Positions 988 to 36,920 of a stretch of DNA of 36,920 nucleotides are shown piece after piece; the first letter of the stretch is position 1, and each line of letters starts with the position of its first letter. The stretch is from positions 1 through 36,920 of the forward strand of contig JBKOZJ010000193.1 in the NCBI GenBank assembly GCA_046725875.1. Direction: 5' to 3'. The notes beneath the pieces were generated by a model that searched no databases, was not told where the DNA came from, and was given only the letters and a program-made list of their open reading frames with translations. The translations under genes and the position numbers were made by a program. This DNA is from Actinomycetota bacterium (GTDB lineage: Bacteria > Actinomycetota > Actinomycetes > JAKEEW01).

Positions 988-1097
988 TGTCGACCCTCCC
1001 GGCGGATGCCTGGCACCAGGCAACTCTCTACGCTTGGTTCGTGCCTTCCGTCCCGACCGAGCCGACCTCGGCCGCATCAGCTCTAGCTGCCGACGCC

Positions 1098-2072
1098 ATG
1101 GTGCGGAACGAGACAGTCGCCATCAGCCCAGCACCCGGCCGAGCGGCCGCTGCCACGGGCGCCGTCGCCCCGGCATCGGAAGTCCGCGCCGCGTCGGCCC
1201 GGACGCGACGGGTGTTCCTGGCCGGGATCATCGCCCAGATCGGGATCGTGATCACCGGGGGGCTGGTCCGGCTCACGGCGTCCGGGCTCGGCTGCCCCGA
1301 GTGGCCGCAGTGTTCCTCGGATTCGCTCGTGCCACGCGCGGAGACCGGCTATCACCAATACGTCGAGTTCGGCAATCGCATGCTCACCGGGGTCGTCGCC
1401 GTCGTGGCGCTCGCCTGCGTCGTCGCGGCCTGGCGGCACCGGCCGCGCCGCCGCTCATTGGTCGCTCTCGCGTCGGTGCTGCTCGGCGGTGTGGCGACGC
1501 AGGCCGTGCTCGGCGGAATTACGGTCCTGACGGAGCTGCATCCGGCGACCGTGGCGGCACACTTCCTGGTCTCGATGACGCTGGTCGCGTTCGCCGTCGC
1601 GTTGTACGAGCGTTCCGGAGAAGGTGACGCCGCACCGATCTCGCTGGTCCGTAATGAGGCAAAGATGCTCGGTTATGGCTTGCTGGCCACCGTTTCCACG
1701 GTGCTCGTACTCGGCACGGTGGTGACCGGAAGCGGCCCGCACTCGGGCGACGCGGAGGACACCGCTCGGTTCGGCTTCGATCCGCGCACCGTCGCGTGGC
1801 TACACGCCGACCTGGTGTGGCTGTTCATGGGCCTCGTCGTCGCGATGGTCGTGCTGCTACGCGCGACCGACGCTCCGCCCCTGGCGAGGCATCGAGCACT
1901 TGTCGTTCTGGCGATCGCACTTGCCCAAGGCGCAATCGGTTACTTCCAATATTGGACCGACCTGCCGGTCGCCGCCGTTGCCCTCCACATGCTCGGCGCT
2001 TCGCTCCTCATGGCCGCCGTCATCCGCCTGATCTACGCGCTGCGCACCCGGCCCTTGGCGGCGACCGGCTAG
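1098..2072 (+). CDS. ctaA: Heme A synthase (COX15/CtaA family)
   Basis: GGLVRLTASGLGCPEWPQC, EFGNR, AHF, GSGPHSGD, LH motifs, about 8 TM; start uncertain (1041 or 1098). Confidence 0.92.
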   Translation: MVRNETVAISPAPGRAAAATGAVAPASEVRAASARTRRVFLAGIIAQIGIVITGGLVRLTASGLGCPEWPQCSSDSLVPRAETGYHQYVEFGNRMLTGVVAVVALACVVAAWRHRPRRRSLVALASVLLGGVATQAVLGGITVLTELHPATVAAHFLVSMTLVAFAVALYERSGEGDAAPISLVRNEAKMLGYGLLATVSTVLVLGTVVTGSGPHSGDAEDTARFGFDPRTVAWLHADLVWLFMGLVVAMVVLLRATDAPPLARHRALVVLAIALAQGAIGYFQYWTDLPVAAVALHMLGASLLMAAVIRLIYALRTRPLAATG

Positions 2073-6058: not shown

Positions 6059-7171
6059 ATGAACGAGACGCTGAAGAAGCTGTCGGCCGAGGGTGTTGCG
6101 ATCTGGCTAGACGACTTGTCCCGGCACCGGCTGGCGTCGGGGAACCTCGCCGAGCTGATCCGCGACAACTTCGTCGTCGGGGTGACCACCAATCCGACGA
6201 TCTTCCAGAAGGCGGTCGCCGGGACGGACATATACGACGAACAGATTGCCGGGTTCGCCAAGCTTGGCATGTCCGTCGGCGAGGCGAGCCATCTGCTGAC
6301 GACGTACGACGTGCGGTGGGCGTGCGACGTCCTGCGGCCCGCCTACGACACGACCGATCGCCTGGACGGCCGGGTTTCGATCGAGGTCGACCCGGGCCTC
6401 GCTCACGAGACCGACAAGACCATCGCCGAGGCGCGGACCCTGTGGTGGCTGGTGGACCGGCCGAACCTCTTCGTCAAGATCCCGGCCACCCGGGCGGGCC
6501 TGGCTGCGATCAGTCAGTGTCTATCCGAAGGTATCTCCATCAACGTGACCTTGATCTTCTCGCTGCAGCGCTACGTGGAGGTAATGGACGCCTTCATGGA
6601 CGGGCTGGAGCGCGCCCAGGCAGCCGGCCGGGATCTGTCGTCGATCGCCTCGGTGGCGTCGTTCTTCGTGAGCCGGGTCGACACCGAGGTCGACAAGCGG
6701 CTGGACAAGCTTGGCACCGACGAGGCTCGGGCGTTGCGCGGGAAGGCCGCGATAGCGAACGCGCGGCTGGCCTTCCAGAAGTACGAGGAGGTCCTCGCGA
6801 GCGAGCGGTGGCGCCGGCTCGAGGCCGCCGGGGCGCGGCCGCAGCGGCCGCTTTGGGCCTCGACCGGGGTCAAGGACCCTGCCTACGACGACACCCGCTA
6901 CGTCGTCGAGCTCGTGACCCGGGGCGTGGTCAACACGATGCCCGAGGCAACGCTAAATGCCGTTGCCGACCACGCTGAGCTGCGCGGCGACACAGTGCGC
7001 GGCGACTACGCGGCGGCGCAGCAGACCATCGACGCGCTCGAGCGGCTCGGCATCTCCTACCCGGACGTTGTCCAGGCGCTGGAGGACGAGGGTGTCGAGA
7101 AGTTCGCGAACTCCTGGAGCGAGCTGCGCGCCTCGATCGAGTCGGAGCTGCAGCGCCTCGTGAAGACCTGA
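6059..7171 (+). CDS. tal: Transaldolase
   Basis: [40 protein letters not shown] before ATG 6059. Confidence 0.97.
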
Positions 7172-19327: not shown

Positions 19328-20531
<1,204 letters not shown>

Positions 20532-23531: not shown

Positions 23532-25579
23532 CCGGTGTCCTGGTCAAGGACCTCGCCGGTCGCAGTGTTGATCGCCGGGCCGGTCGGCTCCGGCTCCGCG
23601 AGTGCGGCGGCGATCGCCTCCGCCGTACGCCGACCGATCCCCGGCACCTCCGCGATCTCCTCTACGGTTGCCGCGCGGAGGCGGCGCAGCGAGCCGAACC
23701 GGCGCAGCAGGGCTCTGCGCCGCGCCGCACCGAGGCCCGGTACGCCGTCCAGCGCGCTGGTCGTCATGCTCCGCGACCGGCGCTTACGGTGGTAAGCAAT
23801 CGCGAACCGATGCGCCTCGTCCCGTACCCGCTGCAGCAAGTAGAGGCCCTCGCTGGTCCGGGGCAGGATCACCGGATCGGGCTGCTCCGGCAACCACACC
23901 TCTTCGAGCCGTTTGGCCAGGCCGCAGAGCGAGACATCGTCGATGCCGAGCTCGGCGAGGGCTCTGGCGGCAGCCGCGACCTGAGGCGAGCCTCCGTCGA
24001 CCACGACCAGGTTCGGCGGATATGCAAACTTTCGCGACCGGCCGGTGTCCGGGTCGATGCCCGCCGGCACTCCACGAGGTCCGGCCGATTCACCGGTGGT
24101 GCCTTGCTCCGTCGGCTCATCAACCTCGTCAAGTCCCAGGTCGAGGGCGCCGGAGCGCTCCTGCTCCTCTAGATAACGGCGAAACCGGCGGCTGATCACT
24201 TCGTAGATCGCCGCCACGTCGTTCTGTCTCGGCTCACCGCCTTCGGCGGCGCGGAGACCCCGGATCGCGAACCGCCGATACTCCGACTTGCGGGCGAGCC
24301 CGTCCTCGAAGACGACCATCGCGGCCACCACGTCGCTGCCATGCAGGTTTGAAATGTCGAAGCACTCGATCCGAAGTGGGGCCTCCGGGAGCCCGAGCGC
24401 CTCCTGGATCTCGTGCAGCGCCCGGCTGCGGGTAGTGAGATCGCTTGCGCGCTTTGTCTTGTGTACGGCAAGCGACTCGGTCGCATTACGGGCAACGGTG
24501 TCGAGCAACGACTTCTTGTCGCCGCGGCGGGGGACCCGCAGGTCCACCCGAGCTCCACGCCGGCTGGTCAGCCACTCGTTCAGCGGCGCCCGGTCGGCCG
24601 GCAATTCAGGAACGAGCACCTCCTTCGGCACGGTGTCGCCGGACTCGCTGCCGTAGAACTGCTGCAGGAAGTCCTCGACGAGCTCGCCGCTGGTCACGTC
24701 CTCGACCTTGTCCACCACGAAGCCGCGCTGCCCGCGAACCCGGCCACCGCGCACATGGAAGACCTGGAAGGCAGCCTCCAGCTGGTCTTCGGCGAGGGCG
24801 ATCACATCGGCGTCGGTGCCGTCGCCGAGCACCACGGCATTCTTCTCCATGGCGCGCTCGAGCGCTTTGATGTCGTCGCGCAGCCGTGCCGCCTGCTCGT
24901 ACTCCAGATTCGCCGCGGCGACCTGCATCTGCTTCTCGAGCCGGCGCATGTAGGTCGCCGTCTGGCCGGCCATGAAGTCGCAGAACTCCTCGGCGATCTG
25001 CCGGTGCTCCTCGGCCGACACGCGCCCTACACACGGCGCCGAGCACTTGCCGATGTAGCCCAGCAGGCAGGGGCGGCCGACCTGATGCGCCCGCTTGAAC
25101 ACCCCGTTGGAGCACGTCCGGGCCGGGAACACCCGCAGCAGAAGGTCGAGCGTCTCCCGGATTGCCCACGCGTGCGCGTAGGGCCCGAAGTAGCGTACGC
25201 CCTTGCGCTTCAGACCGCGCATCACCTGCAGCCGCGGATACTCCTCATCGAGGGTGACCGCGAGAAACGGGTAGCTCTTGTCGTCCCGATAACGAACGTT
25301 GAACCGGGGGTCGAACTCCTTGATCCACGAATACTCGAGCTGCAGCGCCTCCACCTCGGTGCCGACGACCGTCCACTCGACCGATGCGGCGGCGAAGACC
25401 ATGGCCTGAGTACGGGGGTGCAGGCCCACGGGATCCTGGAAATAGGACGCCAGTCGCGACCGGAGGCTCTTCGCCTTGCCCACATAGATGACCCGGCCGC
25501 GCTCGTCCCGGAAGCGGTAGACGCCGGGCGAGTCCGGCACCGAACCTGGTGCCGGCCGGTAAGTCGCCGGGTCAGCCAC
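23528..25579 (-). CDS. uvrC: Excinuclease ABC subunit C
   Basis: GIY-YIG (PGVY..IYVGKAK), Cys cluster, [18 protein letters not shown], HhH domain. Confidence 0.97.
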
Positions 25580-25670
25580 GGTTGACCACCCTACGCCGCG
25601 GTGCCTAAACGACGGCCGATGAGGAACATCCGCGGGCGCGCGCTCGAGCTGCCCATCGGCGCATTCGCTG

Positions 25671-26201
25671 CTATGCGAGCAGGATCTCGCCGCGCGTCAC
25701 GGTGATCATCCTCTCGGGCAGCGGCGTTGGCGCAGGCCCGCCTTCCACGGAGCCGTCCGTGATGCTGTAACGGCTGCCGTGGCACGCGCAGCGGATGAGC
25801 CCTTCATCAACGCTCGAGACAAGACACGCCTGGTGAGTGCAGATCGCGCTGAAGCACTTGAAGTCACCCGTCCTGGGCTGGGTGACGACGACCTTCTCGG
25901 CATTGAAGATGCGGCCGCCCCCGACCGGGATGTCTGCCGCTTTAGCTAGGGGCTCACCACCGGTGGACGGTGAAGTCTCCGACGAAGATGGGGACGCCGG
26001 AGGTGTTGTCGCGTTCCGGGAGCCGTTCGTCGCCGCCGCGTGGCCGGCTGAGTCGTCACCACCGCATGCCGCGAGCACCCCGCCGCTTGCCACCACACCG
26101 GCGGCGGCGAGCCCCCGCAGTATCTGGCGCCGGGACGGCGGCGCTTCGTCTGTCCCCGTTGGGAGCCGTGAGCCGAGATGAGCCTTGATCGCTTCAGGCA
26201 T
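25671..26201 (-). CDS. Tat-exported Rieske [2Fe-2S] lipoprotein
   Basis: SRRQIL Tat motif, LAAC lipobox, CTHQAC and CACHGSRY Rieske boxes, GPA.PL. Confidence 0.9.
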
Positions 26202-26407
26202 TCACAGTCGCTTCCTATCACCAACTACGTGACCATCTCTGCCGAACAGCACGGAGCTTCTGCGGCCACCGTTCACCCGCCGGGCCAAGTCCGAGCTCAT
26301 TCACAGCCTCATGAGTCCGGGACTCCGCTAACGGAGTGCCCAAAGCTGACAGCGGCCACCAGGCATGACCTGGTTACGCCCATCGGACTTAGCGGGAAAA
26401 CGGCTGG

Positions 26408-27118
26408 TCAGTCGCGGCCTTCCGGGCCCTCCTGACGGGCTTCCGCGCGCGGTCGCTGGGTCTCGCCGGACCACGCCGGCCACAGGCGCCGGGCCACGCT
26501 GGCCTCGAGTCGACCGCCCAGATGCATCGACCGCCACACGCCGCGGTAACCGGGTAGAACGCCCGATGCCACCAGCATGTGGCCAAGGATGAGCCCGGTG
26601 ACCGGGTACGTCGTCCACTTGTGAACCCGGGCGAGCAAAACAAAGGTGGGGCCGCCGTGAACGAGGGCGAGCCCTGCTCCGGTTCCCAGGAGCAGGGCCA
26701 GACCAAAGATGACGGTGACGTTGAGTATGCGTTGGCCTGGGTCGAATCGACCCTGATGCCAGCCGAACCGGCCGGTAAAAACAGCGGCCGGCCAGCGGGT
26801 GAACCAACCAAGCTCCGATCGGCGCAAACGAAGTGATTCGGCGACGAACGACGGGATGGATCTAGCTGCGACCAGCACCCAGACAAATGCCAACCCGGTG
26901 ATGATCCAGCCAACCAGCTTGTGCAGGGAGATGTCCGACATCCCGGCGAGCCTGGCAATCGGGCTGGCATGGCCCTCCTGGCCAGCTAGCAGCCACCAGC
27001 CGGTGGCGAGCAGGATCAGGGCGCCGAGATAGGTCCCCGCGTGAAACCACCGCGCCGGGCGCCGATACCTCTCGACCACGCCTACGCCGGCCGTTCGCCG
27101 CCGGCGATCAGTAACCAT
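26408..27118 (-). CDS. Di-heme cytochrome b (FdnI/HyaC-like, 4 TM)
   Basis: Four TM His (RWFH, LHK, VHK, GHM), GRFDPGQR motif, C-terminal A...WP.W; ATG 27118 overlaps the upstream stop. Confidence 0.82.
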   Translation of the reverse strand: MVTDRRRRTAGVGVVERYRRPARWFHAGTYLGALILLATGWWLLAGQEGHASPIARLAGMSDISLHKLVGWIITGLAFVWVLVAARSIPSFVAESLRLRRSELGWFTRWPAAVFTGRFGWHQGRFDPGQRILNVTVIFGLALLLGTGAGLALVHGGPTFVLLARVHKWTTYPVTGLILGHMLVASGVLPGYRGVWRSMHLGGRLEASVARRLWPAWSGETQRPRAEARQEGPEGRD

Positions 27119-27557
27119 TCCCACTGTAGCCACCGGAGCTTGACTCGCTCGGCGTTCCGCCAGAGCCCCCGGTTACGGTTACGGTGATCTCGGCCTCGGC
27201 GCCCGCCGGCGAATGGTCCGCGTGCTGCAAGGTGACCCCGATCGTGTGCTTCCCCGGCGAGAGGTCCTTGACCTCGGTCTGAGTGGACGTCACCACCTCG
27301 TAGTTGTTGGTTTTGCCGTCTACGAAGAGGTGCACGTGGTCCTTTCCCGAGTCGGTCGGGCCGATCTGTTCGCTGGAGGTGAATGTCAGGGTGAACGGCA
27401 CCCTGACGGTGGCAGTGTCAGACGGCGCGGTGACTTGCAGCGTCGGCCCGCCGCCGCCGGAAGACGAGCCGGAGGAGTCGTCCGAGCCGCATGCCGTAGC
27501 AGCGAGGGCAAGCAGCGCGGCGACTCCGATCATGAATGCGAATGTGCGGGGTCGCAT
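27108..27557 (-). CDS. His-rich secreted lipoprotein with small beta-sandwich domain (DUF4399-like)
   Basis: Lipobox ATAC, Ser/Gly linker, HVHLFVDG and PGKHTI...QHADHS motifs; GAGGAG RBS. Confidence 0.65.
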   Translation of the reverse strand: MRPRTFAFMIGVAALLALAATACGSDDSSGSSSGGGGPTLQVTAPSDTATVRVPFTLTFTSSEQIGPTDSGKDHVHLFVDGKTNNYEVVTSTQTEVKDLSPGKHTIGVTLQHADHSPAGAEAEITVTVTGGSGGTPSESSSGGYSGNGY

Positions 27558-27657
27558 GGGTTGCTCCTCGAGGAAAGCTATGTCCTGTTGTTTTCCACGT
27601 CGACAGGGGTGGTGCCGTTCACCTTCAGCCGCATCGACCCCCTTCCGTGTGCCGTGA

Positions 27658-28245
27658 TCAACTGAACTGTGTGTCGCCCGCGCTCACGCCGATCCGGGAG
27701 AGCCCGTCCCTGAGGTGCTCGGCGGTCAACTCGCCGAACCAGCGGTCGACGATCCGTCCGGACGCGTCGACCACAAGCGTGTCCGGAATCCCCTGCAGCC
27801 CAATCCGGGACGCGAACGTCCCCGCCTCGTCGAATACCTGGGGATAGGTCACCTTCGAAGCGGCGAGAAAGCGAAGCGCGGCGCTGCGGCTGTCGCGCGA
27901 GTCGACTCCGAGGAAGAGGACGCGATCGCCAACCGCGCGGTTTGCCGCCTCGAGCAGCCGGGCCTCCCGACGGCATGGTGCACACCATGACGCCCAAAAG
28001 TTGATGACTTCGGGACGACCGTGCACCGCGGCCGCGGAGACCTCGTTCTGCGGGCTGGCCAGGCAGGGCAACATCGTCGTCTTGACTCCGATGATCGGCC
28101 TTCCCGCCCCGGTCGGGCAGGCACCAAGAACCGGGGCATTCCGGGTCGCGATGGACTGATCCGAGGAACCACCACACGCGGCCGCGACGAGAACCAGCAT
28201 GGCAGCTGCGCACCATCGTCGAGACCAAGGAGTGATCCGCGTCAT
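27658..28245 (-). CDS. TlpA/ResA-like thiol-disulfide oxidoreductase lipoprotein
   Basis: Lipobox AAAC, NFWASWCAPCRRE, FLGVD, YP..FD, GIP.T. Confidence 0.9.
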   Translation of the reverse strand: MTRITPWSRRWCAAAMLVLVAAACGGSSDQSIATRNAPVLGACPTGAGRPIIGVKTTMLPCLASPQNEVSAAAVHGRPEVINFWASWCAPCRREARLLEAANRAVGDRVLFLGVDSRDSRSAALRFLAASKVTYPQVFDEAGTFASRIGLQGIPDTLVVDASGRIVDRWFGELTAEHLRDGLSRIGVSAGDTQFS

Positions 28246-28300
28246 AGTTCACCTCGGTGCGGCAATGAACTAAAATTGCTGGTCAGGTCGGTTCCGGAGG

Positions 28301-28987
28301 TTGCACAAGAAGATTGCAGTGGCTGGTAACCGCGTTCTTGCCATCGACGACGAGCCGCGCGTGGTCGATTTCGTCTCGCGTGCTCTCCGCGGCGAGGGCA
28401 TCGACGTCGACACGGCCACGACCGGCGAGGACGGGTTTCGACTCGCGGTCTCGCGCTCCTACGACGTCATCGTTCTCGACCTGTTGATGCCGGGAACGGA
28501 CGGCGTCTCGGTCCTGCACCGCATCCTGCGTCGCAAGCCCGACCAGTCGGTCATCGTCCTCTCTTGCCTTACCGACACGACCTCCAAGGTCCGTTGCCTG
28601 GAGATAGGCGCCGACGACTACCTGGGCAAACCGTTCGCCCTGGACGAGCTCCTTGCCCGGGTGAAGGCGCGAATGCGGGACAAAGCGCCCGCCAACCCGC
28701 AGACCCTGGTGGCGCGCGGGCTGGTGCTGGACCCGGTGCGGCAGGAAGCAAACGGCGGATCCGGACCCATCCCGCTGACCAGGCGCGAATCGATGCTGTT
28801 GGCGGAGCTCATGCGTAACGCCGGCCAGGCGGTTTCCAAGGAGCGCCTGCTCTCGACCGTGTGGGGATACAGTTTCGGCCCAGGATCGAACGTCGTCGAT
28901 GTGTACGTGCGACGGCTGCGCGCGAAGCTCGGATTGGATGCCGTCGTGACCGTACGCGGCACGGGCTACGGGGTGGACATTGATTAG
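28301..28987 (+). CDS. OmpR/PhoB-family response regulator
   Basis: IDDE, VLDLLMP phospho-Asp, GADDYLGKPF, winged helix NVVDVYV.RLR.KL, TVRG.GY; start may be GTG 28319. Confidence 0.93.
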   Translation: MHKKIAVAGNRVLAIDDEPRVVDFVSRALRGEGIDVDTATTGEDGFRLAVSRSYDVIVLDLLMPGTDGVSVLHRILRRKPDQSVIVLSCLTDTTSKVRCLEIGADDYLGKPFALDELLARVKARMRDKAPANPQTLVARGLVLDPVRQEANGGSGPIPLTRRESMLLAELMRNAGQAVSKERLLSTVWGYSFGPGSNVVDVYVRRLRAKLGLDAVVTVRGTGYGVDID

Positions 28988-30062
28988 GCGGTGGCCTGCA
29001 CTCGCGCGGCGGTACTGGGTCGAGCTGGTCTGGTGTCTCTTCGTGCTGGCCAATACCGGCGCGATCCTGATCTTTCGCGACTGGGCCACGGTGCCGTTCC
29101 ACTTCATCTGGATCGGGCTGTCACTGCTCTACGGATGGCGCGTCTGGGGTCTGCGCGCCACCATCTGGGCGCTCGTCACGGTGATAGCGCTCACGGCAGC
29201 CGCGTTGACCATCGACGTGGCGGTGGACGACCAGGCGCCCGACGAGCTGACCGAGATCCCGCTGATGGCCACCGTGTTCGTGGTCATGGTTTGGTACGTC
29301 CGGCGCAACATCGCCGCCAAGGAGGAGATCCGCCGGGTCTCGGAGCACAACCTCGCGCTGCTGCAGCAGGAGCGCCACTTCATCGAAGACGCCTCGCACG
29401 TGCTGCGTACGCCGCTCACGGTCGCCCTGGGACATGCAGAGCTTATTTCGCGAACGACGGGCGACCCGATGACCGCCCATGACTCGAAGGTCATCGTCGA
29501 CGAGCTGAAGCGGCTGAAGAGCGTCTCCGACCGGCTTCTAGAGCTTGCCGCGACAGAGCAGCCGGACTTCGTGCACCCGGTCGAGACATCGATCCGCGAC
29601 CTGATCACGGACGCGCACTCGCGCTGGTCGGCAACCAACCCGGCAGTGGAGTTCGGCCGAGTCGTCAACGCGTCCCTGCCCCTCGACCCGGCCCGGATCC
29701 GGGACGCGCTGGACGAACTGATCGGCAACGCCGTCGGACATTCACCGCCGGGAACCCCGGTCAAGCTGTCGGCGCGGCGGCAGGACGGCACCGTGGTGGT
29801 GGCGGTGGCAGACCGCGGGCCGGGGATCACGCCGAGCGAGCAGGCTCGGATCTTCGACCGGTTCTCCCGCGTCGACGGGGCCGATCGACGCAACGGGTTC
29901 GGCCTCGGGCTGGCCATCGTGAAGGCCATCGCGGAGGCGCACGGTGGCTCCGTGGACGTGCGCAGCGAGCCGGGCCGCGGCACCACCTTCGAGCTGCGGC
30001 TGCCGATGGCCGGCCAGGAGCATGAGAGCCGGCAGCTCCAGCCGGCGCCGTCGCGCCGGTAG
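28980..30062 (+). CDS. Sensor histidine kinase with 4-TM intramembrane sensor
   Basis: Four short TM segments, H-box ASHVLRTPL, N-box LIGNAV, DRGPGI, GFGLGL, HGG. Confidence 0.92.
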   Translation: MIRRWPALARRYWVELVWCLFVLANTGAILIFRDWATVPFHFIWIGLSLLYGWRVWGLRATIWALVTVIALTAAALTIDVAVDDQAPDELTEIPLMATVFVVMVWYVRRNIAAKEEIRRVSEHNLALLQQERHFIEDASHVLRTPLTVALGHAELISRTTGDPMTAHDSKVIVDELKRLKSVSDRLLELAATEQPDFVHPVETSIRDLITDAHSRWSATNPAVEFGRVVNASLPLDPARIRDALDELIGNAVGHSPPGTPVKLSARRQDGTVVVAVADRGPGITPSEQARIFDRFSRVDGADRRNGFGLGLAIVKAIAEAHGGSVDVRSEPGRGTTFELRLPMAGQEHESRQLQPAPSRR

Positions 30063-30192
30063 GGTTCCTCCTGGCGCATTCGGGCAGACGACGGCCCGAT
30101 CAAGCGCAGCGGCGGCCGCGGCCGCACCGGCCTTCGGGCGCCGGCCGGGTCTCGGTTCGTCGTACAGGTCGACGACATCCCCCTGCTCCCGC

Positions 30193-32253
30193 TCACCCGT
30201 CGTCCGGATGAGGCATATCGACCGGTTGGTCGAAGGCGTGGTAGCGATCGTCCATGAAATGAGTGGGTGCCCACATCTGAGACCTCAGCACTCGGCCGGT
30301 GGCCCGATCGATCCACAACGTGAACCAGACGGTCTCCGGGTTGTCGCCATGCCCGCCGAAGAACGACACGCGGGTCACTGGGACACCGCCAAGCGACCGA
30401 TGCTCTACGACATGGGCATTGACGAACGGCTCGAACGGGGTCCACGCGAAATACGGCACTGGAACGAGCGCGCCCTCCGACCGTAGTTTCCACGGCGCCC
30501 CAGGACTACTGCGCACGTAGACCTTGGACCCGAGCCACAGTGTGTCCTGCGGACCGTCGCCGAACCACGTCCGCAGCCACATGGCGTGCGGCCGGGCGTA
30601 AACATAAGCACTTCTGATGCCGGAGAGCACCTCGTTCACGCGGTAGCTGTGCACGCGATCCATCTGAGCGGTCGCCCGTTCCAGGAGCGCCGTACCATCC
30701 GGGGCGGGCAGCCTCGGAAGGACAAACGCAGCCGTCCCGCCGCCGTCTCCCGCCACCGCCACCCCTACGCGCTCGCCGCCGCGCAGGTCGACAGGGACGG
30801 TCCAGCAGGACGGCCCGCATGCCACAAACGGATACGAGCGACCGCGGACCGACAGCCGGACATCCCCGAGGCCAGCCGGTGACGGGGCGATGTAGGCATA
30901 CACCTGGTTCGAACCTGGGCGACCAGGACGCACGGTGAGGCCCACCATCGTGTCGCCCGCCCGCCCGCCGATCGAGTAGTCCCCCGGCCGCGGGAACGGA
31001 GACATCTCGGCGGCTCCGGCCGTCGCCTCGCGGGACTCCTCGGCCTCACCGGCCTCCCTAGGCACCACCGGGAAGGCAGCGAGCGCCGCGGCCGCGGCCA
31101 CGACGACCAGCGCGACGACCGCCTCGCCTCGCACCATCACCCGCAGCCGCCGCCAGGCGAGAAAAGACAGCGGGATCATGGCGGCGACGGCGAGGCCTTT
31201 CGCGAGGAGGGTTAGGCCGTATGCAGTACTGAGCACCTCGCCGGGCCCGCCCAGCAGCTGGGCGGCCTGCACTACTCCCAGACCCACCGAGATCCCGAAC
31301 GCCCATGGCGCGACCGTCGAGAACCGGGGCAGCAACGCCCGGCCCACGGTCGGCCAGCCGCCGGTCACGCGCACGAACGCCAGGGCCATGATGCCGCCGG
31401 CCCATACTCCGGCGGCGGCGAGATGAGCGGCGTTGACGGCCATCCCGGCCCACGCCGGTTCGACGTTGGCGGCGTGGCCGGCCACGGCGACCGCGCCCAC
31501 AACACCGGTAAGGAGGACCGGTGACAGGCGCCCCCGCACAAGGGCAATGATCAGGATGCACAGTTCGAGTCCGATCCGAGCGACCCGGGCCCAGCCGGTG
31601 ACACCGATCGTCAGGTAGTCCCGTAGTCCAGACATGGACAAGCCGGACGTGGCCACCGCCGCCTCCGCGAGGACCACGGTCGTGCCGCCGATCAGAAGCG
31701 CGGTCGCGACGGGAACGGCGGGGGGACGCATCGGGATCTCGGGTCCGAGCCGGCGCAGTACCACGAGTCCGCAAGCCAGCAGCAGCACGGCGTACTCGAT
31801 CGCGCGGGCAGCTGCGGTAAGCCCGTCGCCACGCGAGGGTTGGGGTGAGCCGCCCGTGGCCGCAGCGCCGGCCGGCACCCCGACGCCGAACCGGAATGCG
31901 CCGGTGATCGTATGTCCGTCGACATGGCTCACCGTCGTCCACTCGACCCGATAGACGCCGGGCGCGTTGGTCGACAGCGGCACCCGGATCGTCGCGCCGG
32001 AGACCGAGTCCTGGAAGCGGCGACCGGTCGGGTCGACGACGGTGGCGTGCGAGAGCCGGGCCACAAGGGGCTCGTCGAAGGTCAAGACGACGACCCCGGG
32101 CGTCGCTCCCAGCGTCGCACCCGCGGCCGGGCTCGAGGAGACGAGGATCGCGTGCGCCTCGGCCGGGGTCGGGATGATCAGGAGCCACCCCACGCCGATA
32201 ATGCAGCACGCTAGACGCAGCGACCACCGTGTGCCGCGCCGAGCCGATCGCAT
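30193..32253 (-). CDS. CopC-CopD fusion copper uptake/resistance protein with extra C-terminal extracellular domains
   Basis: Signal peptide AEA|HA.LVSSSP, DGH CopC motif, CopD GHA and HL.AA.VW.GG, YG..L..K, then about 270 soluble residues. Confidence 0.88.
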   Translation of the reverse strand: MRSARRGTRWSLRLACCIIGVGWLLIIPTPAEAHAILVSSSPAAGATLGATPGVVVLTFDEPLVARLSHATVVDPTGRRFQDSVSGATIRVPLSTNAPGVYRVEWTTVSHVDGHTITGAFRFGVGVPAGAAATGGSPQPSRGDGLTAAARAIEYAVLLLACGLVVLRRLGPEIPMRPPAVPVATALLIGGTTVVLAEAAVATSGLSMSGLRDYLTIGVTGWARVARIGLELCILIIALVRGRLSPVLLTGVVGAVAVAGHAANVEPAWAGMAVNAAHLAAAGVWAGGIMALAFVRVTGGWPTVGRALLPRFSTVAPWAFGISVGLGVVQAAQLLGGPGEVLSTAYGLTLLAKGLAVAAMIPLSFLAWRRLRVMVRGEAVVALVVVAAAAALAAFPVVPREAGEAEESREATAGAAEMSPFPRPGDYSIGGRAGDTMVGLTVRPGRPGSNQVYAYIAPSPAGLGDVRLSVRGRSYPFVACGPSCWTVPVDLRGGERVGVAVAGDGGGTAAFVLPRLPAPDGTALLERATAQMDRVHSYRVNEVLSGIRSAYVYARPHAMWLRTWFGDGPQDTLWLGSKVYVRSSPGAPWKLRSEGALVPVPYFAWTPFEPFVNAHVVEHRSLGGVPVTRVSFFGGHGDNPETVWFTLWIDRATGRVLRSQMWAPTHFMDDRYHAFDQPVDMPHPDDG

Positions 32254-32254
32254 C

Positions 32255-32479
32255 TCAGCGCATCGCGATGGCCAGAATCGCCAGCCCGGCCAGGACCACC
32301 AGGACCGTGATGAACACGGTCGCGTGGTATTGCGTCCGGCTCGGCTCGGGCAATCCGGCGGGGTTGCAGTCTTTGCAGACCGACCGGCCCCATGCCGTCG
32401 GCTTGCCGCAACGGACGCACTGGTCGAATGAGCGCATCGTGACTGCCGCCCTTCCCGGGGCCGCCTGCCGTTCAGGCAT
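32255..32479 (-). CDS. Small membrane-anchored CxxC-x10-CxxC metal-binding protein (hypothetical)
   Basis: CVRC..CKDC followed by NP.GL..P..TQYH and a C-terminal TM helix; ATG 32479 overlaps the ctaF-like stop, own stop abuts copCD start; alternative start 32437. Confidence 0.7.
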   Translation of the reverse strand: MPERQAAPGRAAVTMRSFDQCVRCGKPTAWGRSVCKDCNPAGLPEPSRTQYHATVFITVLVVLAGLAILAIAMR

Positions 32480-32921
32480 GATGCGGTCCACCTGCGAGGT
32501 CCGGGCTCTCCTCATGCGGCTCGGCCTCATCATGATGCCGCCATTGCTGGCGGACGTCGAGGATCCAGCCGATGCCCGCGGCGATGAAGAGCGCACCGCC
32601 GCCGACGAGCGCCCAAAGCGGCCCAACGGCCCCGACGACCAGGCCGATCGTGGCGAGGGCGATCACCAGCGGCCAGATGGTCGGACCGACATGGGGTTCG
32701 GCGTCCGGGCCACCTAGTGGCACCGCGGCGGCCTCCGCGGCGAGGGCGACCCGGGCCCGATGCACGGCAGAGACCAGGTAGGCGCCGACGAGAAGCGCAC
32801 CCCCAGCCACGATGAGCATCAGCGTAGTGCCCTCCCACTCGTAGGTAACCGCGCCGTAGATCACGCCGGTGACGAGGAGGAATCCGCCGAAGCCGAAGAT
32901 GATCCTCGAGAACAAGTTCAT
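32472..32921 (-). CDS. ctaF: Cytochrome c oxidase subunit IV (actinobacterial CtaF-like)
   Basis: 4 TM, Y....EWEGT and P.IWP motifs; GGAGG RBS before ATG 32921; operon position. Confidence 0.75.
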   Translation of the reverse strand: MNLFSRIIFGFGGFLLVTGVIYGAVTYEWEGTTLMLIVAGGALLVGAYLVSAVHRARVALAAEAAAVPLGGPDAEPHVGPTIWPLVIALATIGLVVGAVGPLWALVGGGALFIAAGIGWILDVRQQWRHHDEAEPHEESPDLAGGPHHA

Positions 32922-32972
32922 GGGCAGCCACCTCCGCTCGGCCAATGCCGGGAGCGACCCAAGGCACCCATA

Positions 32973-33581
32973 TCAGCCGGCCGGCGCCAAGTAGAGGATC
33001 AGGTAGATCGCGACGCCGAGGGCGACGACGAAATACCAATAGATACCCGCGGCCTGCACCGGATCTCGTTGCAGCGCCAGCTCACCGGCCCAGGCGCGGA
33101 CGAGGACCAGGGACAGCAGCACTACTCCGCCCACCACATGGGCCAGCTCCAGTCCCGTGATCGTGTAGAACAGGGATTCGTAGATCCCCTCCCCCACGCC
33201 GAATCCCAGCCCCTGGTAGCCGGCCGCCAGGAGGGCAACAAAGGCCACCGCACAGGCCACCGTCACACCGAGCCAGGGCATCATCCCGCGCGGGTAGTCG
33301 GGTCGACGGATCTTGCGCAGCACCCGAGACATGGAGACACCGCTGAGGAGCAGCACGACGGCCGCGATTGTCGGCTGCGCGAGCGCAGGTCCGGTGGCGC
33401 CGGCCGGCGGCCAGACATCCGCCTCCGTGTACGCCGTCATGTAGATGCCGAAGAACGCCGCGAAGAACACCCCTTCGGAGGCCACGAAGATGGTCATTGC
33501 GGTTACCGGACTGCCCGCATTTCGTACGGCCCGCCGGTCCAGCAGCTCGGGCGATGGCGCGGCGCCAGACTGGGTGCTCAT
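32973..33581 (-). CDS. ctaE: Heme-copper oxidase subunit III (divergent)
   Basis: F.ASE..FF..FF, WPP, LL.S, FY..TGL..AHV..G, YW.FV; ATGA overlap with subunit I. Confidence 0.85.
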   Translation of the reverse strand: MSTQSGAAPSPELLDRRAVRNAGSPVTAMTIFVASEGVFFAAFFGIYMTAYTEADVWPPAGATGPALAQPTIAAVVLLLSGVSMSRVLRKIRRPDYPRGMMPWLGVTVACAVAFVALLAAGYQGLGFGVGEGIYESLFYTITGLELAHVVGGVVLLSLVLVRAWAGELALQRDPVQAAGIYWYFVVALGVAIYLILYLAPAG

Positions 33582-35212
33582 GCCGTCACCCCTGACTCGG
33601 CAGTGGTGCTCAGCCGCAGGTCACGGACCGGTCGTTCGGACCTGATCTCGGGGAGTCTTTCAAAGTTGTAGGGAGGCGGTGGCGAAGTCGTAGCCCACTC
33701 CAGCGTGTTGCCCTGCCATGGATCGGCCGGTGCGGTGCGCGGCCTTCGCAGGGTTATGACGAGATTGGCCAGCGCGACCAGCATCCCCAAAGCGATGATG
33801 AAGGCGCCGATGGTCGCAACCACGTTGAGTGTCGTCCATCCCGCATCGCTGGGATAGAACGCGACCCGGCGCGGCATGCCCTGCAGGCCCAGGTAGTGCA
33901 TTGGGAAGAACGTCAAGTTGAACCCGATGAACTGGAGCCAGAAGTGCGCGTAACCCAGCCGCCGGTCGAGGTAGCGGCCGGTTATCTTCGGGAACCAGTA
34001 GTACATCGCGGCCATGATCGCGAAGAGGCTGCCGCCGAACAGCACGTAGTGAATGTGCGCGACGACGAAATACGTGTCGTGGATCGCGTAGTCCATCGCC
34101 GGGGAAGCCATCCACACGCCGTCGATCCCGCCGATCAGGAAGAGCGCGACGAACCCGAGCGCGAAGAGCATCGGCGGCTCGAACCGGAGCTTCCCCCGCC
34201 ACATGGTGAACAGCCAGTTCAGGAACAGCACGCCGGTCGGCACGGAGATTACCTCCGTGGTCACGGAGAAGAACGAATCATCGACGAGGCCGGTGGTGTA
34301 CATGTGATGGCCCCACACGGTGAACGACAGGGCTACCACGAGCATCAGGGCGAGAATGACTCCGCGATAGCCGAACAGCGGCTTGCCGCTGAATACCGGG
34401 ATGATCTCGGAGACGATTCCCCAGGCGCCCATGATGAGCATGTAGACCTCGGGGTGCCCGAAGAACCAGAACGTGTTCAGGTAGTTGAACACGCTGCCGC
34501 CGTGGGCTGGATCGAGGAAGACGGTTCCGAGGTGGCGGTCGGCGAACAGGATTATGAGCACCGCCGTCAGGGCCGGGACCGCCAGCACCACCAGGATCGA
34601 GGTGCTTAGCGTCGCCCAGGTGAAGATTGGTACCCGCGTCATGCTCATTCCCGGCGCCCGCATCCGGAGCACCGTCACGATGAAGTTGATCGCGCCGAGC
34701 AGTGAGCTGGTTCCCACCACCAGCAGGCCCAGGATCCAAAGATCCTGCCCGGTTCCCTCCTGCAGCGCGAGCGGCACGTAATTCGTCCAGCCGGCCGCGG
34801 CCGGGCCGTCCTTGGTGAGATATCCGGCGAGGATCGTGAGTCCACCAACGGGCAGCAGCCAGAACGACAACGCGTTTATCCGGGGGAAGGCCATGTCGAG
34901 CGCGCCGATCTGCAGCGGCACGAAGTAGTTGCCGAAGCCGGACAGCAGCGGGAGTATCACGAGGAAGATCATGATCGTCCCGTGCATGGTGAAGGTCTCG
35001 TTGTACGCCTGCGGCGAGAGAACCGTGTTGTCCGGTTGCGCCAGCTGCGTCCGGATCACCATCGCCAGAGCGCCGGCGATGGCGAAGAACGCGAACGAAT
35101 TGAAGAGGTACAGTATTCCGATCTTCTTGTGATCGGTGGTCGTCAACCAGGCGAGTGCCCGCGCGGGGCGCGGCTGCGGTGCCCGTGCCGGCGCCCGAGC
35201 GATTACCGTCAT
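33578..35212 (-). CDS. ctaD: Heme-copper oxidase subunit I, A1-type but lacking the K-pathway lysine
   Basis: TTDHK.IG, H77, D106 (DMAFPRIN), FGHPEVY, WGHHM, HDTYFVVAHIHY, GMPRR; PTGVL in place of PTGVK. Confidence 0.93.
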   Translation of the reverse strand: MTVIARAPARAPQPRPARALAWLTTTDHKKIGILYLFNSFAFFAIAGALAMVIRTQLAQPDNTVLSPQAYNETFTMHGTIMIFLVILPLLSGFGNYFVPLQIGALDMAFPRINALSFWLLPVGGLTILAGYLTKDGPAAAGWTNYVPLALQEGTGQDLWILGLLVVGTSSLLGAINFIVTVLRMRAPGMSMTRVPIFTWATLSTSILVVLAVPALTAVLIILFADRHLGTVFLDPAHGGSVFNYLNTFWFFGHPEVYMLIMGAWGIVSEIIPVFSGKPLFGYRGVILALMLVVALSFTVWGHHMYTTGLVDDSFFSVTTEVISVPTGVLFLNWLFTMWRGKLRFEPPMLFALGFVALFLIGGIDGVWMASPAMDYAIHDTYFVVAHIHYVLFGGSLFAIMAAMYYWFPKITGRYLDRRLGYAHFWLQFIGFNLTFFPMHYLGLQGMPRRVAFYPSDAGWTTLNVVATIGAFIIALGMLVALANLVITLRRPRTAPADPWQGNTLEWATTSPPPPYNFERLPEIRSERPVRDLRLSTTAESGVTA

Positions 35213-35251
35213 TGTCGTACCACCCCTATCTCGAGTCCTCCACGCGCGCGG

Positions 35252-36349
35252 TTATTTCGCCGGCCCGATGATCAGGGTTCCGCTCATCGCCGGACCGTGG
35301 ATGTCGCATTGGAAGTAGTACCTTCCGGGCTTCAGCGCCGGGACGGTGAAGGTCTTGGTTACTGGTCCGGTGAAGTCCGGCGTGATGTAGAACTGGTGCT
35401 TGGTTTTCGGGCTGTCCCAGATCGCAAAGTTGTGGGCTATCTGGTTGTCCTCATTCTTGATCGTGATTTGGAACGGCTTTCCGGCCAGGACTGCGAGGCA
35501 GTTCTTGTCCCAAGTGATTTGGTGCGCGACCAGCTCTAGGGTCGACCCGGTCGGTTTGCACTCGCCCCCGTGGGCCGCTGCCTTCTTCTGCTGCTCGACC
35601 CAGGAAAGGAACTCCGCCTGGGGCACGACCTTGACTACGAAGGTCATCTGAGCGTGCCATAGCCCGCAGAACTGCGCACACTGGCCGCGATAGGTCCCGA
35701 GCTTTGACGGTGTGACCGTGAAGACGTTCGGGTGCCCTGGTACCGCGTTCTTCATATACAACAGGTCAGGCACGTAGAACTCGTGGATCACATCCGTGGA
35801 TCGAAGCTCGATCCGGGTCGGCGTGTCGACCGGCAACTCCATCATGAGTGGCTGCTTGAGGGTCTTCCCAGTGACCGTGAACTCCTCGTTGACGTAGTTC
35901 GCCGACCACTCCCATTGGAATGCGTTGATCACAAGCCGTTCACCAGGGTTCGGGTCGTTGCGATCGACCCGGGCTACTGCCACCTCCCCGACCGCAAGCA
36001 GCACGATGATGACCGCGAGCGGCCCGGCGAAGAATGCCGCCAGTGCAGTGTTGTTGCCGGCGTGCTGCACCGGCTCGGACTCGTCACCGCGCCGCCTGCG
36101 GAACCGGACCACTGAGATGAGCAGCATGCCCTCGACGAACAGAAACACCGGGAGCGCGAGCCAGAGGACGATGTAGAAGAGTCCGTGCACGGTCTCGGAC
36201 TTCGACGAGATCCCCGGCTTCACGCAGGCGGATGTCAACAGCAGCGACCCGAGGAGGCCTACCATCCGCAGCCGCCGGCTGAAGCCGGTGGCTGCGGAGG
36301 TCGTTGTCCGACGGGTCCGCTCGCGGTAACGCGCGGGCCAACGCATCAT
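35252..36349 (-). CDS. ctaC: Heme-copper oxidase subunit II (CuA) fused to a C-terminal type-1 blue copper domain
   Basis: Lipobox-like LTSAC, 2 TM, QWEW, DVIH, CAQFCGLWHAQM; then AHNF...YYFQCDIHGPAM.G cupredoxin. Confidence 0.9.
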   Translation of the reverse strand: MMRWPARYRERTRRTTTSAATGFSRRLRMVGLLGSLLLTSACVKPGISSKSETVHGLFYIVLWLALPVFLFVEGMLLISVVRFRRRRGDESEPVQHAGNNTALAAFFAGPLAVIIVLLAVGEVAVARVDRNDPNPGERLVINAFQWEWSANYVNEEFTVTGKTLKQPLMMELPVDTPTRIELRSTDVIHEFYVPDLLYMKNAVPGHPNVFTVTPSKLGTYRGQCAQFCGLWHAQMTFVVKVVPQAEFLSWVEQQKKAAAHGGECKPTGSTLELVAHQITWDKNCLAVLAGKPFQITIKNEDNQIAHNFAIWDSPKTKHQFYITPDFTGPVTKTFTVPALKPGRYYFQCDIHGPAMSGTLIIGPAK

Positions 36350-36350
36350 C

Positions 36351-36920
36351 TCAAGAGACCGTGAATCCCTTGACCATGCCGATGGAGGCGTGCACGGGGC
36401 CGGTGCCGCCGCCGGCCTTACCGTCCTCCCAGCAACTGATCACGTAATTGCCGGGCGGCAAGTTGAACGACCCTACGCTGGTTCCGCCGGTGTCGACGTC
36501 GGCGATCTCCCCGAACCCTAGGTAGTCCCCTTCGCCGTCGGGGCCTTTCGCCTTGGCGGAGGCCACCACGTCGTCCGCGGTCTTACCGGCGGGGACGCCG
36601 AGCAGGACCAGCTCGTGGGTGATGTCGAAGGTTTCCTTGTTGGAGAAAACGATGTTGAACGGCTGGTTCGCCGGCACCGTGTCCGGCATGCCCTGATAGG
36701 TGAAGTTGGCCACCGACACCTGGTAGGTCTTCGGGGCGGCAGCACCTTGCGCAGTGGCCGACGAGGATGCGGTGAACGCCTTGACCATGCCGATGGAGGC
36801 GTGCACGGGGCCGGTGCCGCCGCCGGCCTTGCCGTCCTCCCAGCAACTGATCACGTAATTGCCGGCCGGCAGGCTGAAGGTATGCACGCCGGTACCGCCG
36901 GTGTCGACGTCGGCGATCTC
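36351..36920 (-). CDS. Tandem-domain blue copper protein (azurin/auracyanin/sulfocyanin-like), 5' end outside window
   Basis: Frame is open to the window edge; HELV...L.PGNYVISC-x13-H-x4-M; the Cys/His/Met segment occurs twice. Confidence 0.85.
   Translation of the reverse strand, partial: EIADVDTGGTGVHTFSLPAGNYVISCWEDGKAGGGTGPVHASIGMVKAFTASSSATAQGAAAPKTYQVSVANFTYQGMPDTVPANQPFNIVFSNKETFDITHELVLLGVPAGKTADDVVASAKAKGPDGEGDYLGFGEIADVDTGGTSVGSFNLPPGNYVISCWEDGKAGGGTGPVHASIGMVKGFTVS
36368..36920. repeat. Intragenic direct repeat, 411-bp period
   Basis: 36368-36454 matches 36779-36865 with a single mismatch, and similarity continues to the window end. Confidence 0.92.

Follow-up and report, generated by a model that had tools for sequence, protein, structure and literature searches.

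Introduction

In the model A-type haem-copper oxidases (HCOs) the two reductive steps draw their substrate protons from the K channel, and mutations in this channel inhibit the enzymes strongly, as described in PMC7196763. The supplementary tables of Degli Esposti et al. (2021; PMC8239418) list many family-A oxidases that do without the K-channel lysine and in which Glu78 of COX2 is replaced as well. Among these are rus-operon oxidases, as in Acidithiobacillus ferridurans (Ile and Val), the enzymes of Acidimicrobium ferrooxidans (Leu and Gln), Acidithrix, a Pseudonocardiales metagenome-assembled genome (MAG; Leu and Thr), Ca. Dormibacter, Sulfobacillus and Alicyclobacillus, and A1 types of Elusimicrobia, Methylacidiphilum and Bacteriovorax; the listed actinobacterial sequences fall within clades that have two additional helices at the N-terminus. 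Here, we describe a further family-A oxidase without the lysine, encoded by an operon at one end of a 36,920-nucleotide stretch of DNA from an Actinomycetota bacterium (assembly GCA_046725875.1, contig JBKOZJ010000193.1, positions 1 to 36,920; this whole stretch is called the window in the following), the subunit II of which ends in a putative type-1 copper domain.

Copper proteins as electron donors of oxidases have been described in several groups of prokaryotes. The rus-operon oxidase of Acidithiobacillus works beside rusticyanin and the oxidase-bound cupredoxin AcoP, according to PMC4059628. In archaea blue-copper proteins are described next to coxAB (as stated in PMC9038741), and auracyanin serves Chloroflexus respiration as a membrane-tethered blue-copper carrier (as outlined in PMC3150298). 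K-less family-A oxidases, including the cupredoxin-associated rus-operon enzyme, are therefore already known, and the designation of the present locus as a new respiratory system without any characterised example, put forward in an earlier note made from the sequence of the window, was too strong, given the K-less enzymes listed in PMC8239418 and the rus-operon enzyme with its two copper proteins in the account of PMC4059628. Full-text literature searches retrieved no paper that deals with this actinobacterial clade or with the fusion of a type-1 copper domain to subunit II. What appears to be new here is an independent loss of the K pathway in an enzyme without extra N-terminal helices, the predicted fusion of a type-1 copper domain to subunit II, and the auracyanin-like lipoprotein.

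Replacement of the lysine also occurs in subunit I+III fusions of about 840 aa with Gln at this site (P0259, P0261, P0266 and relatives, a separate family-A group that includes cultured Ectopseudomonas mendocina, E. toyotomiensis and Pseudomonas sediminis) and in an otherwise intact family-A subunit I of the Thermoplasmata 'Ca. Sysuiplasma'. These groups fall into other clades than the window enzyme and differ from it in the replacing residue (Gln, Ala or Val) and in subunit architecture. We know of no enzyme among them that has been studied for its lysine replacement.

The oxidase operon and its proposed mode of action

The operon comprises the following genes:

36920 down to 30193, minus strand: oxidase operon of tightly packed genes
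36351..36920, minus strand: tandem auracyanin-like type-1 copper lipoprotein, 3' part of the gene, which runs past the end of the window (5' end outside)
35252..36349, minus strand: subunit II (CoxB/CtaC); PF00116 with 55.6 bits and PF13473 with 61.8 bits
33578..35212, minus strand: subunit I (CtaD), A1 type, 544 aa; PF00115 with 521 bits
32973..33581, minus strand: subunit III (CtaE), five-helix actinobacterial form; PF00510 with 62.1 bits, and PDB alignments
32472..32945, minus strand: subunit IV (CtaF), actinobacterial type; PF12270 with 32.5 bits (cut-off 26.9)
32255..32437, minus strand: small 4-Cys membrane protein of 60 aa with the pattern CxxC-x11-CxxC
30193..32253, minus strand: CopC-CopD fusion; PF04234 with 74.5 bits, PF05425 with 24.9 bits, the latter below the cut-off

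The genes ctaD and ctaE share a 4-nt overlap and the remaining gaps measure 0-39 nt. Since the genes abut or overlap, they form a single transcription unit as far as the sequence can show; a scan of 25500-36920 for consensus promoters and terminators yielded counts at the level of shuffled sequences. The earlier note had described just such an operon of tandem cupredoxin, subunits II, I, III and IV, CxxC protein and CopCD, and all these genes were recovered, closely packed on the minus strand, although the span it assigned to them (32255..36920) leaves out CopCD (30193-32253). It was also right in seeing neither a CxxCH cytochrome c nor qcr genes in the window: the CxxCH motif occurs in none of the 32 called genes, its sole occurrence in the six-frame translation (stop-free stretches of at least 60 aa) lies out of frame inside whiA, and no qcr gene is present within the 36.9 kb.

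We consider it reasonably probable that the locus encodes a complete, functional, accessory A1 aa3-type O2 reductase of an uncultured soil actinobacterium into which electrons enter through copper only. Briefly, we infer that a donor reduces a membrane-tethered lipoprotein with one to three auracyanin-like type-1 copper domains, which would pass the electrons on to the auracyanin-like type-1 copper domain fused to the C-terminus of subunit II, at the place where caa3 oxidases carry a cytochrome c, and from there the electrons would reach CuA, haem a, the haem a3/CuB site and finally O2. All substrate and pumped protons would enter by way of the D pathway or of a remodelled polar route, for which Ser296 is a candidate residue. 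The adjacent two-component system would switch the operon on and off, and assembly and copper supply would be dedicated, relying on Caa3_CtaG and ctaB in the relatives and on the TlpA-like protein and CopCD here.

How does this enzyme compare with the described ones? With the actinobacterial bcc-aa3 oxidase (CtaCDEF; Mycobacterium smegmatis 6ADQ, Corynebacterium glutamicum 7Q21) it shares the A1 motifs, the five-helix subunit III and the PF12270 subunit IV, but it has lost the K-pathway lysine and the subunit II glutamate and gained a fused type-1 copper domain, the nearest solved relative of its subunit II is the Thermus caa3 protein and not mycobacterial CtaC, and its genes are all assembled in one operon with no qcr nearby. 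Like the caa3 oxidases (Thermus thermophilus 2YEV; Bacillus) it has a carrier domain at the C-terminus of subunit II and a linked Caa3_CtaG, whereas the carrier is a type-1 copper cupredoxin instead of a c-type cytochrome and the K pathway is absent. Auracyanin, which belongs to the alternative complex III (ACIII) chain of Chloroflexus and Roseiflexus, is the best fold of both copper modules (6kol, 1qhq, 2aan) and has a His/Cys/His/Met ligand set like the one predicted for these modules, and the membrane tethering described for AuraB in PMC3150298 would be shared by the lipoprotein. However, sequence identity is only 17-22%, the lipoprotein has 13 residues between Cys and His and up to three tandem domains, one copy of the domain is fused to subunit II, and no ACIII genes are found nearby. 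The rus-operon and 2TM-type K-less clades resemble the window enzyme in that HPEVY is kept, K354 (the K-channel lysine) and COX2 E78 are replaced, Caa3_CtaG is linked and, for the rus-operon aa3 enzyme as described in PMC4059628, the oxidase cluster contains cupredoxin genes and AcoP binds to the enzyme. They differ in having one or two extra N-terminal helices, which the window CtaD lacks, in stemming mostly from acidophilic iron oxidisers and in using cytochrome c4 in their chain, and no fusion of their subunit II to a type-1 copper domain is reported. The nitric oxide reductases (NORs) of the HCO superfamily, finally, have no cross-link tyrosine and changed metal-B ligands, as presented in PMC11214002, while the window clade keeps Tyr257 and the three CuB histidines.

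Subunit I has lost the K pathway and kept the D pathway

CtaD of the window scores barely above the cut-off of TIGR02891 (CtaD_CoxA; 673.7 bits, cut-off 670.75), and M. smegmatis CtaD (6adq_F, E 1.6e-177) is its nearest relative of known structure. In the alignment of the two proteins the haem and CuB histidines, GHPEVY, the arginines of GMPRR and the D-pathway aspartate (ALDMAFPR) all match, while L329 of VPTGVLFLNW takes the place of the K-pathway lysine of VPTGIKFFNW. Residue 18 of the window protein aligns with residue 27 of 6adq_F, leaving no extra N-terminal transmembrane (TM) helices.

Conservation was analysed in the best 120 subunit I homologues (69-100% identity), all of which come from metagenomes or MAGs, and 117 of these, those of 500-600 aa, were aligned. 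Each of the six histidine ligands (H77, H253, H302, H303, H386, H388) is present in 117 of 117 sequences, as are the cross-link Tyr257, the complete D pathway (D106, N95, N113, N176, S170 and E255) and the arginines R448 and R449, and the GHPEVY motif, a hallmark of the A1 type, occurs in 120 of 120 homologues. Position 329 is occupied by Leu in 116 sequences and by Met in one. A second sample was drawn from species-representative genomes, which were scanned with subunit II motifs; the scan gave 337 matching stretches, the best 79 loci of which (21 kb each) were used throughout. In these loci the CtaD of the operon has Leu at the lysine site in 68 cases and Lys in two (L076 and L079, outliers with a subunit II identity of 35-38%), the site being uncovered in nine. 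The record titles designate 78 of the loci as MAG or uncultured and one as 'Actinobacteria bacterium isolate 23'; none names a cultured strain.

As the K pathway is lost in the clade, protons must come via the intact D pathway or via a remodelled region. Compared with 36 K-bearing sequences (34 library representatives of 500-700 aa and two paralogues from the loci), only seven positions are clade-specific, namely T216, M258, W264, S296, S323, L329 and D364. The clade-invariant S296 is located six residues ahead of the CuB histidine pair and corresponds to the last 'KC-channel' column in the table of Degli Esposti et al. (2021), in whose column scheme the window CtaD reads Y S L T N E G V A S (PMC8239418). 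W264 is found close to the former K-pathway entrance, and both S296 and W264 may be parts of a remodelled proton route, being leads rather than results. D364, a change from Thr to Asp, was considered as a stand-in for the K pathway and dropped, since some members of the clade have Asn at this position and the K-bearing L079 has Asp there. In the bovine structure this residue is situated at the level of the haems, outside the K region.

Concerning the acceptor, O2 is the most likely one, because the tyrosine cofactor and the CuB site needed for its reduction are invariant; according to PMC11214002, O2 reduction requires this tyrosine, which NORs lack.

The origin of the clade was examined in a CtaD tree of 71 rows (quick LG+G4 search with SH-aLRT support), which contained the window, every third of the 63 full-length CtaDs of the loci (21 sequences), four locus sequences that bear the lysine and, from the library, 45 representatives of 500-900 aa. 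All 22 K-less rows sampled group together in a single clade (SH-aLRT 100), which is nested in a clade of 27 rows (SH-aLRT 98), the other five members of which all bear the lysine. Such nesting among Lys-bearing rows implies a single loss wherever the root lies outside the 27-row clade, and the K pathway thus appears to have been lost once, at the base of the clade, within K-bearing actinobacterial CtaD. Library representatives with N-terminal extensions of about 100 aa and Ile, Val or Leu at the lysine site form a separate clade in the tree. Because the window clade branches apart from them, the loss seems, as far as the sampling shows, to be independent of that in the 2TM-type K-less clades.

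Subunits II, III and IV

Subunit II consists of a signal-like N-terminus followed by an invariant Cys42, two TM helices, the CuA domain and the C-terminal type-1 copper domain. Its best PDB match is Thermus caa3 subunit II (2yev_B, E 3.7e-29), and its score against TIGR02866 CoxB remains below the cut-off (139.3 versus 147.7 bits). As compared with 2yev_B and Paracoccus 1ar1_B, Leu or Ala replaces the Glu at the cytoplasmic end of TM2. All 58 evaluated K-less loci are devoid of an acidic residue near this site (Leu in 53, Ile or another residue in the rest; 20 loci were not evaluable), and the K-bearing L076 keeps the Glu. The CuA motif of the window protein, CAQFCGLWHAQM, contains a Gln at the place of the Glu of CxExC, the side chain of which binds Mg in canonical enzymes, and the CuA ligands H189, C224, C228, H232 and M235 are invariant in the alignment of subunit II (A1), the motif as such being found in 120 of 120 homologues. 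The Gln is shared by all of the 120 closest subunit II homologues and by only 26 of the 79 loci, the other 53 having Glu. Since it is limited to the subclade of the window, the exchange of Glu for Gln must be younger than the loss of the K pathway, and the idea that the two were coupled was abandoned.

In subunit III the YWHFVD-type motif is relaxed and conservation is lost at H145 and E176, whereas seven of seven Lys-bearing paralogues keep the motif and both residues. These changes are real, yet they do not affect established proton-pathway residues. Subunits III and IV are short actinobacterial forms, and against the curated actinobacterial aa3 models the scores of CtaC, CtaD and CtaE stay below the cut-offs (NF050117, 151.2 versus 250; NF050116, 672.9 versus 880; NF050119, 67.4 versus 190). 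The gene ctaF follows ctaE in 62 of the 79 loci.

The earlier note had stated that proton-pathway residues are changed together in subunits I, II and III while all metal ligands are intact. The first part holds for the K pathway, that is for L329 and for the Glu of subunit II, but not for the D pathway, which is intact in 117 of 117 sequences, nor for subunit III, the changes of which lie elsewhere. The second is correct for copper and haem and has to be amended for the Mg-binding Glu of CxExC, which is Gln in the window.

The copper modules

The fused domain makes up the C-terminal 104 residues of subunit II, where it accounts for the PF13473 match, and contains a conserved Cys pair. Its predicted type-1 copper ligands, His306, Cys348, His351 and Met355, correspond to H45, C87, H90 and M94 of the domain alignment (A3), in which they are invariant and classically spaced. 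Ligands for both CuA and type-1 copper are present in 120 of 120 subunit II homologues, none of which contains a CxxCH motif, and the type-1 copper motif is found in 77 of the 79 loci. The closest homologues are not ordinary cytochrome c-dependent enzymes. By sequence, the fused domain has no significant match in the PDB (best E 0.031). An AlphaFold model computed from 35 sequences (pLDDT 94.6) retrieves with Foldseek auracyanins first (6kol with E 1.2e-8 and TMq 0.75; 2aan and 1qhq), then azurins, and rusticyanin in 41st place.

The gene of the lipoprotein contains a direct DNA repeat (36361-36509 and 36772-36920; 411-nt period, 91% identity), indicating at least two domains within the window. 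With the window fragment alone Pfam gives 20.4 bits, below the cut-off of 27. Full-length orthologues consist of a signal peptide with Cys and one to three auracyanin-like domains of about 137 aa, the motif count being one in 51 loci, two in three and three in nine, with none found or the region uncovered in 16. These proteins yield a whole-protein Pfam score of 31.6-35 bits for SoxE/sulfocyanin, with no single stretch passing, and a weak NCBIfam EfeO match (30 bits versus a cut-off of 270). H48, C109, H123 and M128 are invariant in 47 sequences of the lipoprotein domain, and in a Foldseek search with the AlphaFold2 model built from these (pLDDT 95.3) auracyanins come out on top (6kol with E 1.3e-8 and TMq 0.66; 1qhq). 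Both copper modules are thus predicted to fold as auracyanin/azurin-type cupredoxins, which together with the ligands and the lack of CxxCH agrees with the all-copper electron input proposed in the earlier note. A cupredoxin gene is located upstream of coxB in 70 of the 79 loci. A co-fold of the soluble part of subunit II (residues 126-365, alignment A1) with the lipoprotein domain (A2) scored 0.00 against a mark of 0.32, which is no evidence either way.

Two observations on the domain number may be added. The lipoprotein of L001 (8503-9879) has three cupredoxin domains, each about 137 aa long, that are nearly identical letter by letter, which suggests recent tandem duplication or gene conversion. 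In L052 and L057 (10001-11260) subunit II apparently carries two tandem C-terminal cupredoxin domains, and these loci lack a separate cupredoxin gene upstream.

The conserved module and its surroundings

Apart from the operon, the following genes of the window bear on its function:

28301..28987, plus strand: OmpR-type response regulator (Pfam)
28980..30062, plus strand: membrane-embedded histidine kinase without extracellular domain (Pfam)
27658..28245, minus strand: TlpA/ResA-like thiol-disulfide oxidoreductase with lipoprotein-type N-terminus; Redoxin with 61 bits
27108..27557, minus strand: DUF4399-like lipoprotein, as annotated in the window
26408..27133, minus strand: cytochrome b561 (Ni_hydr_CYTB), as annotated in the window
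25671..26201, minus strand: small Tat-signal Rieske lipoprotein, as annotated in the window
1041..2072, plus strand: ctaA for haem A synthesis; PF02628 with 96 bits
2746..3756, minus strand: ctaB for haem A synthesis; PF01040 with 226.6 bits

Families of neighbouring genes were defined by clustering the 1209 open reading frames (ORFs) of the 79 loci and by tblastn with the window proteins. Clustering recovered CoxB in 77 loci, CtaD in 68, the cupredoxin in 59, Caa3_CtaG in 53, the histidine kinase in 51, CtaF in 50, the response regulator in 48, CtaE in 46, the 4-Cys CxxC protein in 28, CtaB in 21 and CopCD in 17, and no other family reached ten.

The pair of response regulator and histidine kinase, convergent with the operon in the window, is found within 10 kb in 61-62 of the 79 loci, and it probably regulates the operon. 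The best NCBIfam subfamily of the response regulator is the heavy-metal type, with a score below the cut-off (174 versus 279), and the sensor region of the kinase contains a conserved PFHF membrane motif and no assignable signal. The 4-Cys protein has a tblastn match in 62 loci, 61 of which preserve the four-Cys pattern; the CxxC-x11-CxxC part is followed by a conserved NPAGLPEPS stretch and one C-terminal TM helix, Pfam and NCBIfam give no match, and the protein probably serves in assembly or as an extra subunit. Downstream of the operon, distant relatives have ctaG followed by the 4-Cys gene on the other strand, in convergent orientation, and in close relatives ctaB and Caa3_CtaG are divergent and directly upstream of the cupredoxin gene. 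CopCD, which probably supplies copper, is present in 21 of 79 loci and belongs to the operon in close relatives only, as the last gene in the subclade of the window. The NCBIfam CopC and CopD matches of this fusion are below the cut-offs, and its C-terminal part of about 290 aa (30193-31050), without Pfam match, resembles in the Atlas stand-alone hypothetical proteins of Actinomycetota of 324-339 aa (score 0.91). The TlpA/ResA-like redoxin adjoins the response regulator in 18 of 79 loci and matches the DsbE subfamily below the cut-off. By analogy with TlpA of Bradyrhizobium, it possibly helps in the assembly of CuA or of the copper sites.

The Rieske protein (25671-26201) and cytochrome b561 (26408-27133) had escaped the earlier note. 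Together with the DUF4399 and redoxin genes they form a row (25671-28245) that could be the quinol-side partner of the operon, but this row is not conserved, tblastn in the 79 loci finding the Rieske protein in none and the b561 and DUF4399 proteins in one each (L014). In that locus a DUF4399 and b561 pair (4836-6102) is located just upstream of ctaB-ctaG.

Several relatives have further oxidases close by. L016, L017 (699-3498), L020 and L024 contain within 10 kb, on the opposite strand, a second oxidase operon with a subunit II that carries a C-terminal type-1 copper domain and keeps the CuA and TM2 glutamates, and with a CtaD that reads VPTGVKMFNW, the lysine being kept; the 120 best homologues of this subunit II stem from metagenomes throughout. 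Since K-bearing operons also have the fused type-1 copper domain, its fusion to subunit II must be older and broader than the loss of the K pathway. In L055 (64-5829) and L063 (3-3913) a caa3-type operon lies within 10 kb and directly upstream of the K-less one; it encodes COX2 with a cytochrome c domain, a K-bearing CtaD, CtaE, COX4_pro and CtaG, followed by a two-domain cupredoxin (Copper-bind and Cupredoxin_1). The K-less enzyme therefore coexists with K-bearing oxidases in relatives. As such operons stand next door in these six relatives, the enzyme is most likely accessory and separately regulated, and the suggestion of a second, accessory oxidase in the earlier note gains indirect support, also from the nesting of the clade within K-bearing CtaD. 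Between the two oxidase operons of L017 (5176-7116) a CtaA-CtaB fusion of 646 aa (COX15-CtaA and UbiA) was observed.

The remainder of the window, which has a GC content of about 0.68, is a piece of actinobacterial core chromosome. Its backbone comprises genes for an ABC-2 permease, ctaA, ctaB, tkt, tal, a pgi-like gene, zwf, opcA and pgl, furthermore an alpha-amylase family gene, a LacI regulator, a RibD_C protein, tpi, pgk, gap, whiA, a CofD-family gene, rapZ and uvrC, an order that matches the ctaB-tkt-tal-zwf-opcA-pgl and uvrC-rapZ-whiA-gap-pgk-tpi regions of Mycobacterium. The ctaA and ctaB genes belong to this conserved backbone and not to the oxidase operon. The island starts beside uvrC with Rieske, b561, DUF4399-like and redoxin genes, continues with the two-component pair and ends with the oxidase operon. 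In the backbone, the pgi-like ORF (7217-9034, 605 aa) has a weak PGI match over residues 100-305 only and the gap ORF (19328-20527) as called has an N-terminal extension of about 70 aa; in both cases the start codon may be mis-set or the protein unusual.

Weighing the alternatives

Several points weigh against an accessory O2 reductase with copper-only electron entry. Clustering of the 1209 ORFs revealed no conserved gene for complex III, ACIII, a cytochrome c or a dehydrogenase, and the conserved neighbourhood thus does not provide the electron donor of the cupredoxin. In the lipoprotein domain the loop from Cys to His is unusually long (13 residues) and the first His is followed by an invariant Glu, and its copper site may be non-classical instead of a blue site. 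The Gln at the Mg site, present only in the window's subclade, shows that the changes did not all arise at the same time. Without a K pathway, such an enzyme might turn over slowly or work differently. Moreover, all close relatives are from uncultured organisms, and the accessory status in this genome is deduced from the relatives and from the backbone synteny with Mycobacterium.

It could be imagined that the locus represents a natural D-pathway-only, proton-pumping, all-copper, cytochrome-c-free and iron-sparing branch in widespread soil Actinomycetota that is fed by a quinol:cupredoxin oxidoreductase and whose wire consists of up to three tethered type-1 copper centres, a fused one and CuA. 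The Rieske, cytochrome b561 and DUF4399 set beside the operon is a candidate for such an oxidoreductase. We regard this far-reaching version as possible but rather unlikely.

Alternatively, the operon could be the end of an extracytoplasmic chain for the oxidation of Fe(II), Cu(I) or Mn(II), similar to the rus system, in which the surface-exposed lipoprotein feeds the oxidase with electrons from the metal. The published K-less family-A oxidases cluster in iron oxidisers of the genera Acidithiobacillus, Acidiferrobacter, Acidimicrobium, Acidithrix and Sulfobacillus (PMC8239418), but many relatives of the window are titled soil or pasture metagenome bins and none acidophile, most titles giving no habitat, and the clade groups with ordinary actinobacterial CtaD and not with the extended representatives having Ile, Val or Leu. 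The SoxE/sulfocyanin and weak EfeO matches of the relatives' lipoprotein would fit a metal donor, whereas the best folds are auracyanin and azurin, with rusticyanin ranking so low for the fused domain. CopCD is part of the operon and a Gram-positive envelope needs no outer-membrane cytochrome; however, no metal-oxidase or multihaem gene is conserved nearby in the 79 loci. A metal-oxidising chain is on balance improbable.

Could the enzyme instead be the main or only haem-copper oxidase of the lineage, the copper route replacing the bcc-aa3 supercomplex? Second oxidases are absent within 10 kb in the closest relatives (L001-L015) but adjoin the operon in the six more distant ones, and the 36.9-kb window contains neither qcr nor cytochrome c genes, yet its backbone is like that of Actinomycetes, in which the possession of qcrCAB-ctaCDEF is the rule. 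The presence of ctaA and ctaB in the window, and of ctaB and ctaG directly upstream of the operon in close relatives, would suit a main oxidase. However, ctaB of the window shares only 49-63% identity with the operon-linked copies in the close relatives L001-L023, as opposed to 75-87% for CtaD (54% over the short L004 fragment), which fits two ctaB paralogues, and a dedicated two-component system in 61-62 of 79 loci would be typical of conditionally expressed systems. We hold a main oxidase to be improbable as well.

K-pathway mutants of Rhodobacter sphaeroides keep peroxidase activity, and a cupredoxin-dependent peroxidase or NO reductase might have no need of a K pathway. In line with this notion, the K channel has to deliver protons only in the reductive steps that precede O2 binding, as set out in PMC7196763, and A-, B- and C-family oxidases reduce NO weakly, as mentioned in PMC11214002. 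We consider this very unlikely, since the tyrosine cross-link motif, the three CuB histidines and the complete D pathway are invariant, since known NORs are without the tyrosine and have changed active sites (as portrayed in PMC11214002), and since other K-less family-A enzymes such as the rus-operon oxidase are O2 reductases (as reported in PMC4059628). Nothing supports the H2O2 or NO acceptors or the Cu(I) or Fe(II) donors that had been envisaged at the outset, and the active site has the full signature of an O2 reductase.

A decaying or non-functional duplicate, to which the loss of a residue considered essential and the relaxed motifs of subunit III could point, can be dismissed as far as the sequence can tell, since dN/dS is 0.10-0.26 for CtaD and 0.18-0.51 for CoxB (NG86, window versus eight relatives, eight pairs per gene; rough ratios, as dS of 0.66-1.2 is near saturation), the substitutions are clade-wide and not strain-specific, the ligands are invariant in 117 sequences, the scan of species-representative genomes gave 337 matching stretches, and the operon order is conserved among the loci.

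Implications

The K pathway has been held indispensable for the reductive half of the A-type cycle, and a large, strongly conserved clade that has done away with its lysine and its entrance glutamate while retaining all other catalytic residues is a natural experiment on the delivery of substrate protons. The cultured Ectopseudomonas strains with their I+III fusions would offer a tractable system for A-type oxidases without the lysine. The exchange of cytochrome c for copper proteins, known from Chloroflexi, archaea and acidophiles, would be extended to Actinomycetota by the accessory O2 reductase proposed here. As a two-component system stands beside most of the related loci, the conditions under which the enzyme is used should be testable in metatranscriptomes, and the copper wiring of these organisms may be of relevance to iron economy and to the use of oxygen in soils.

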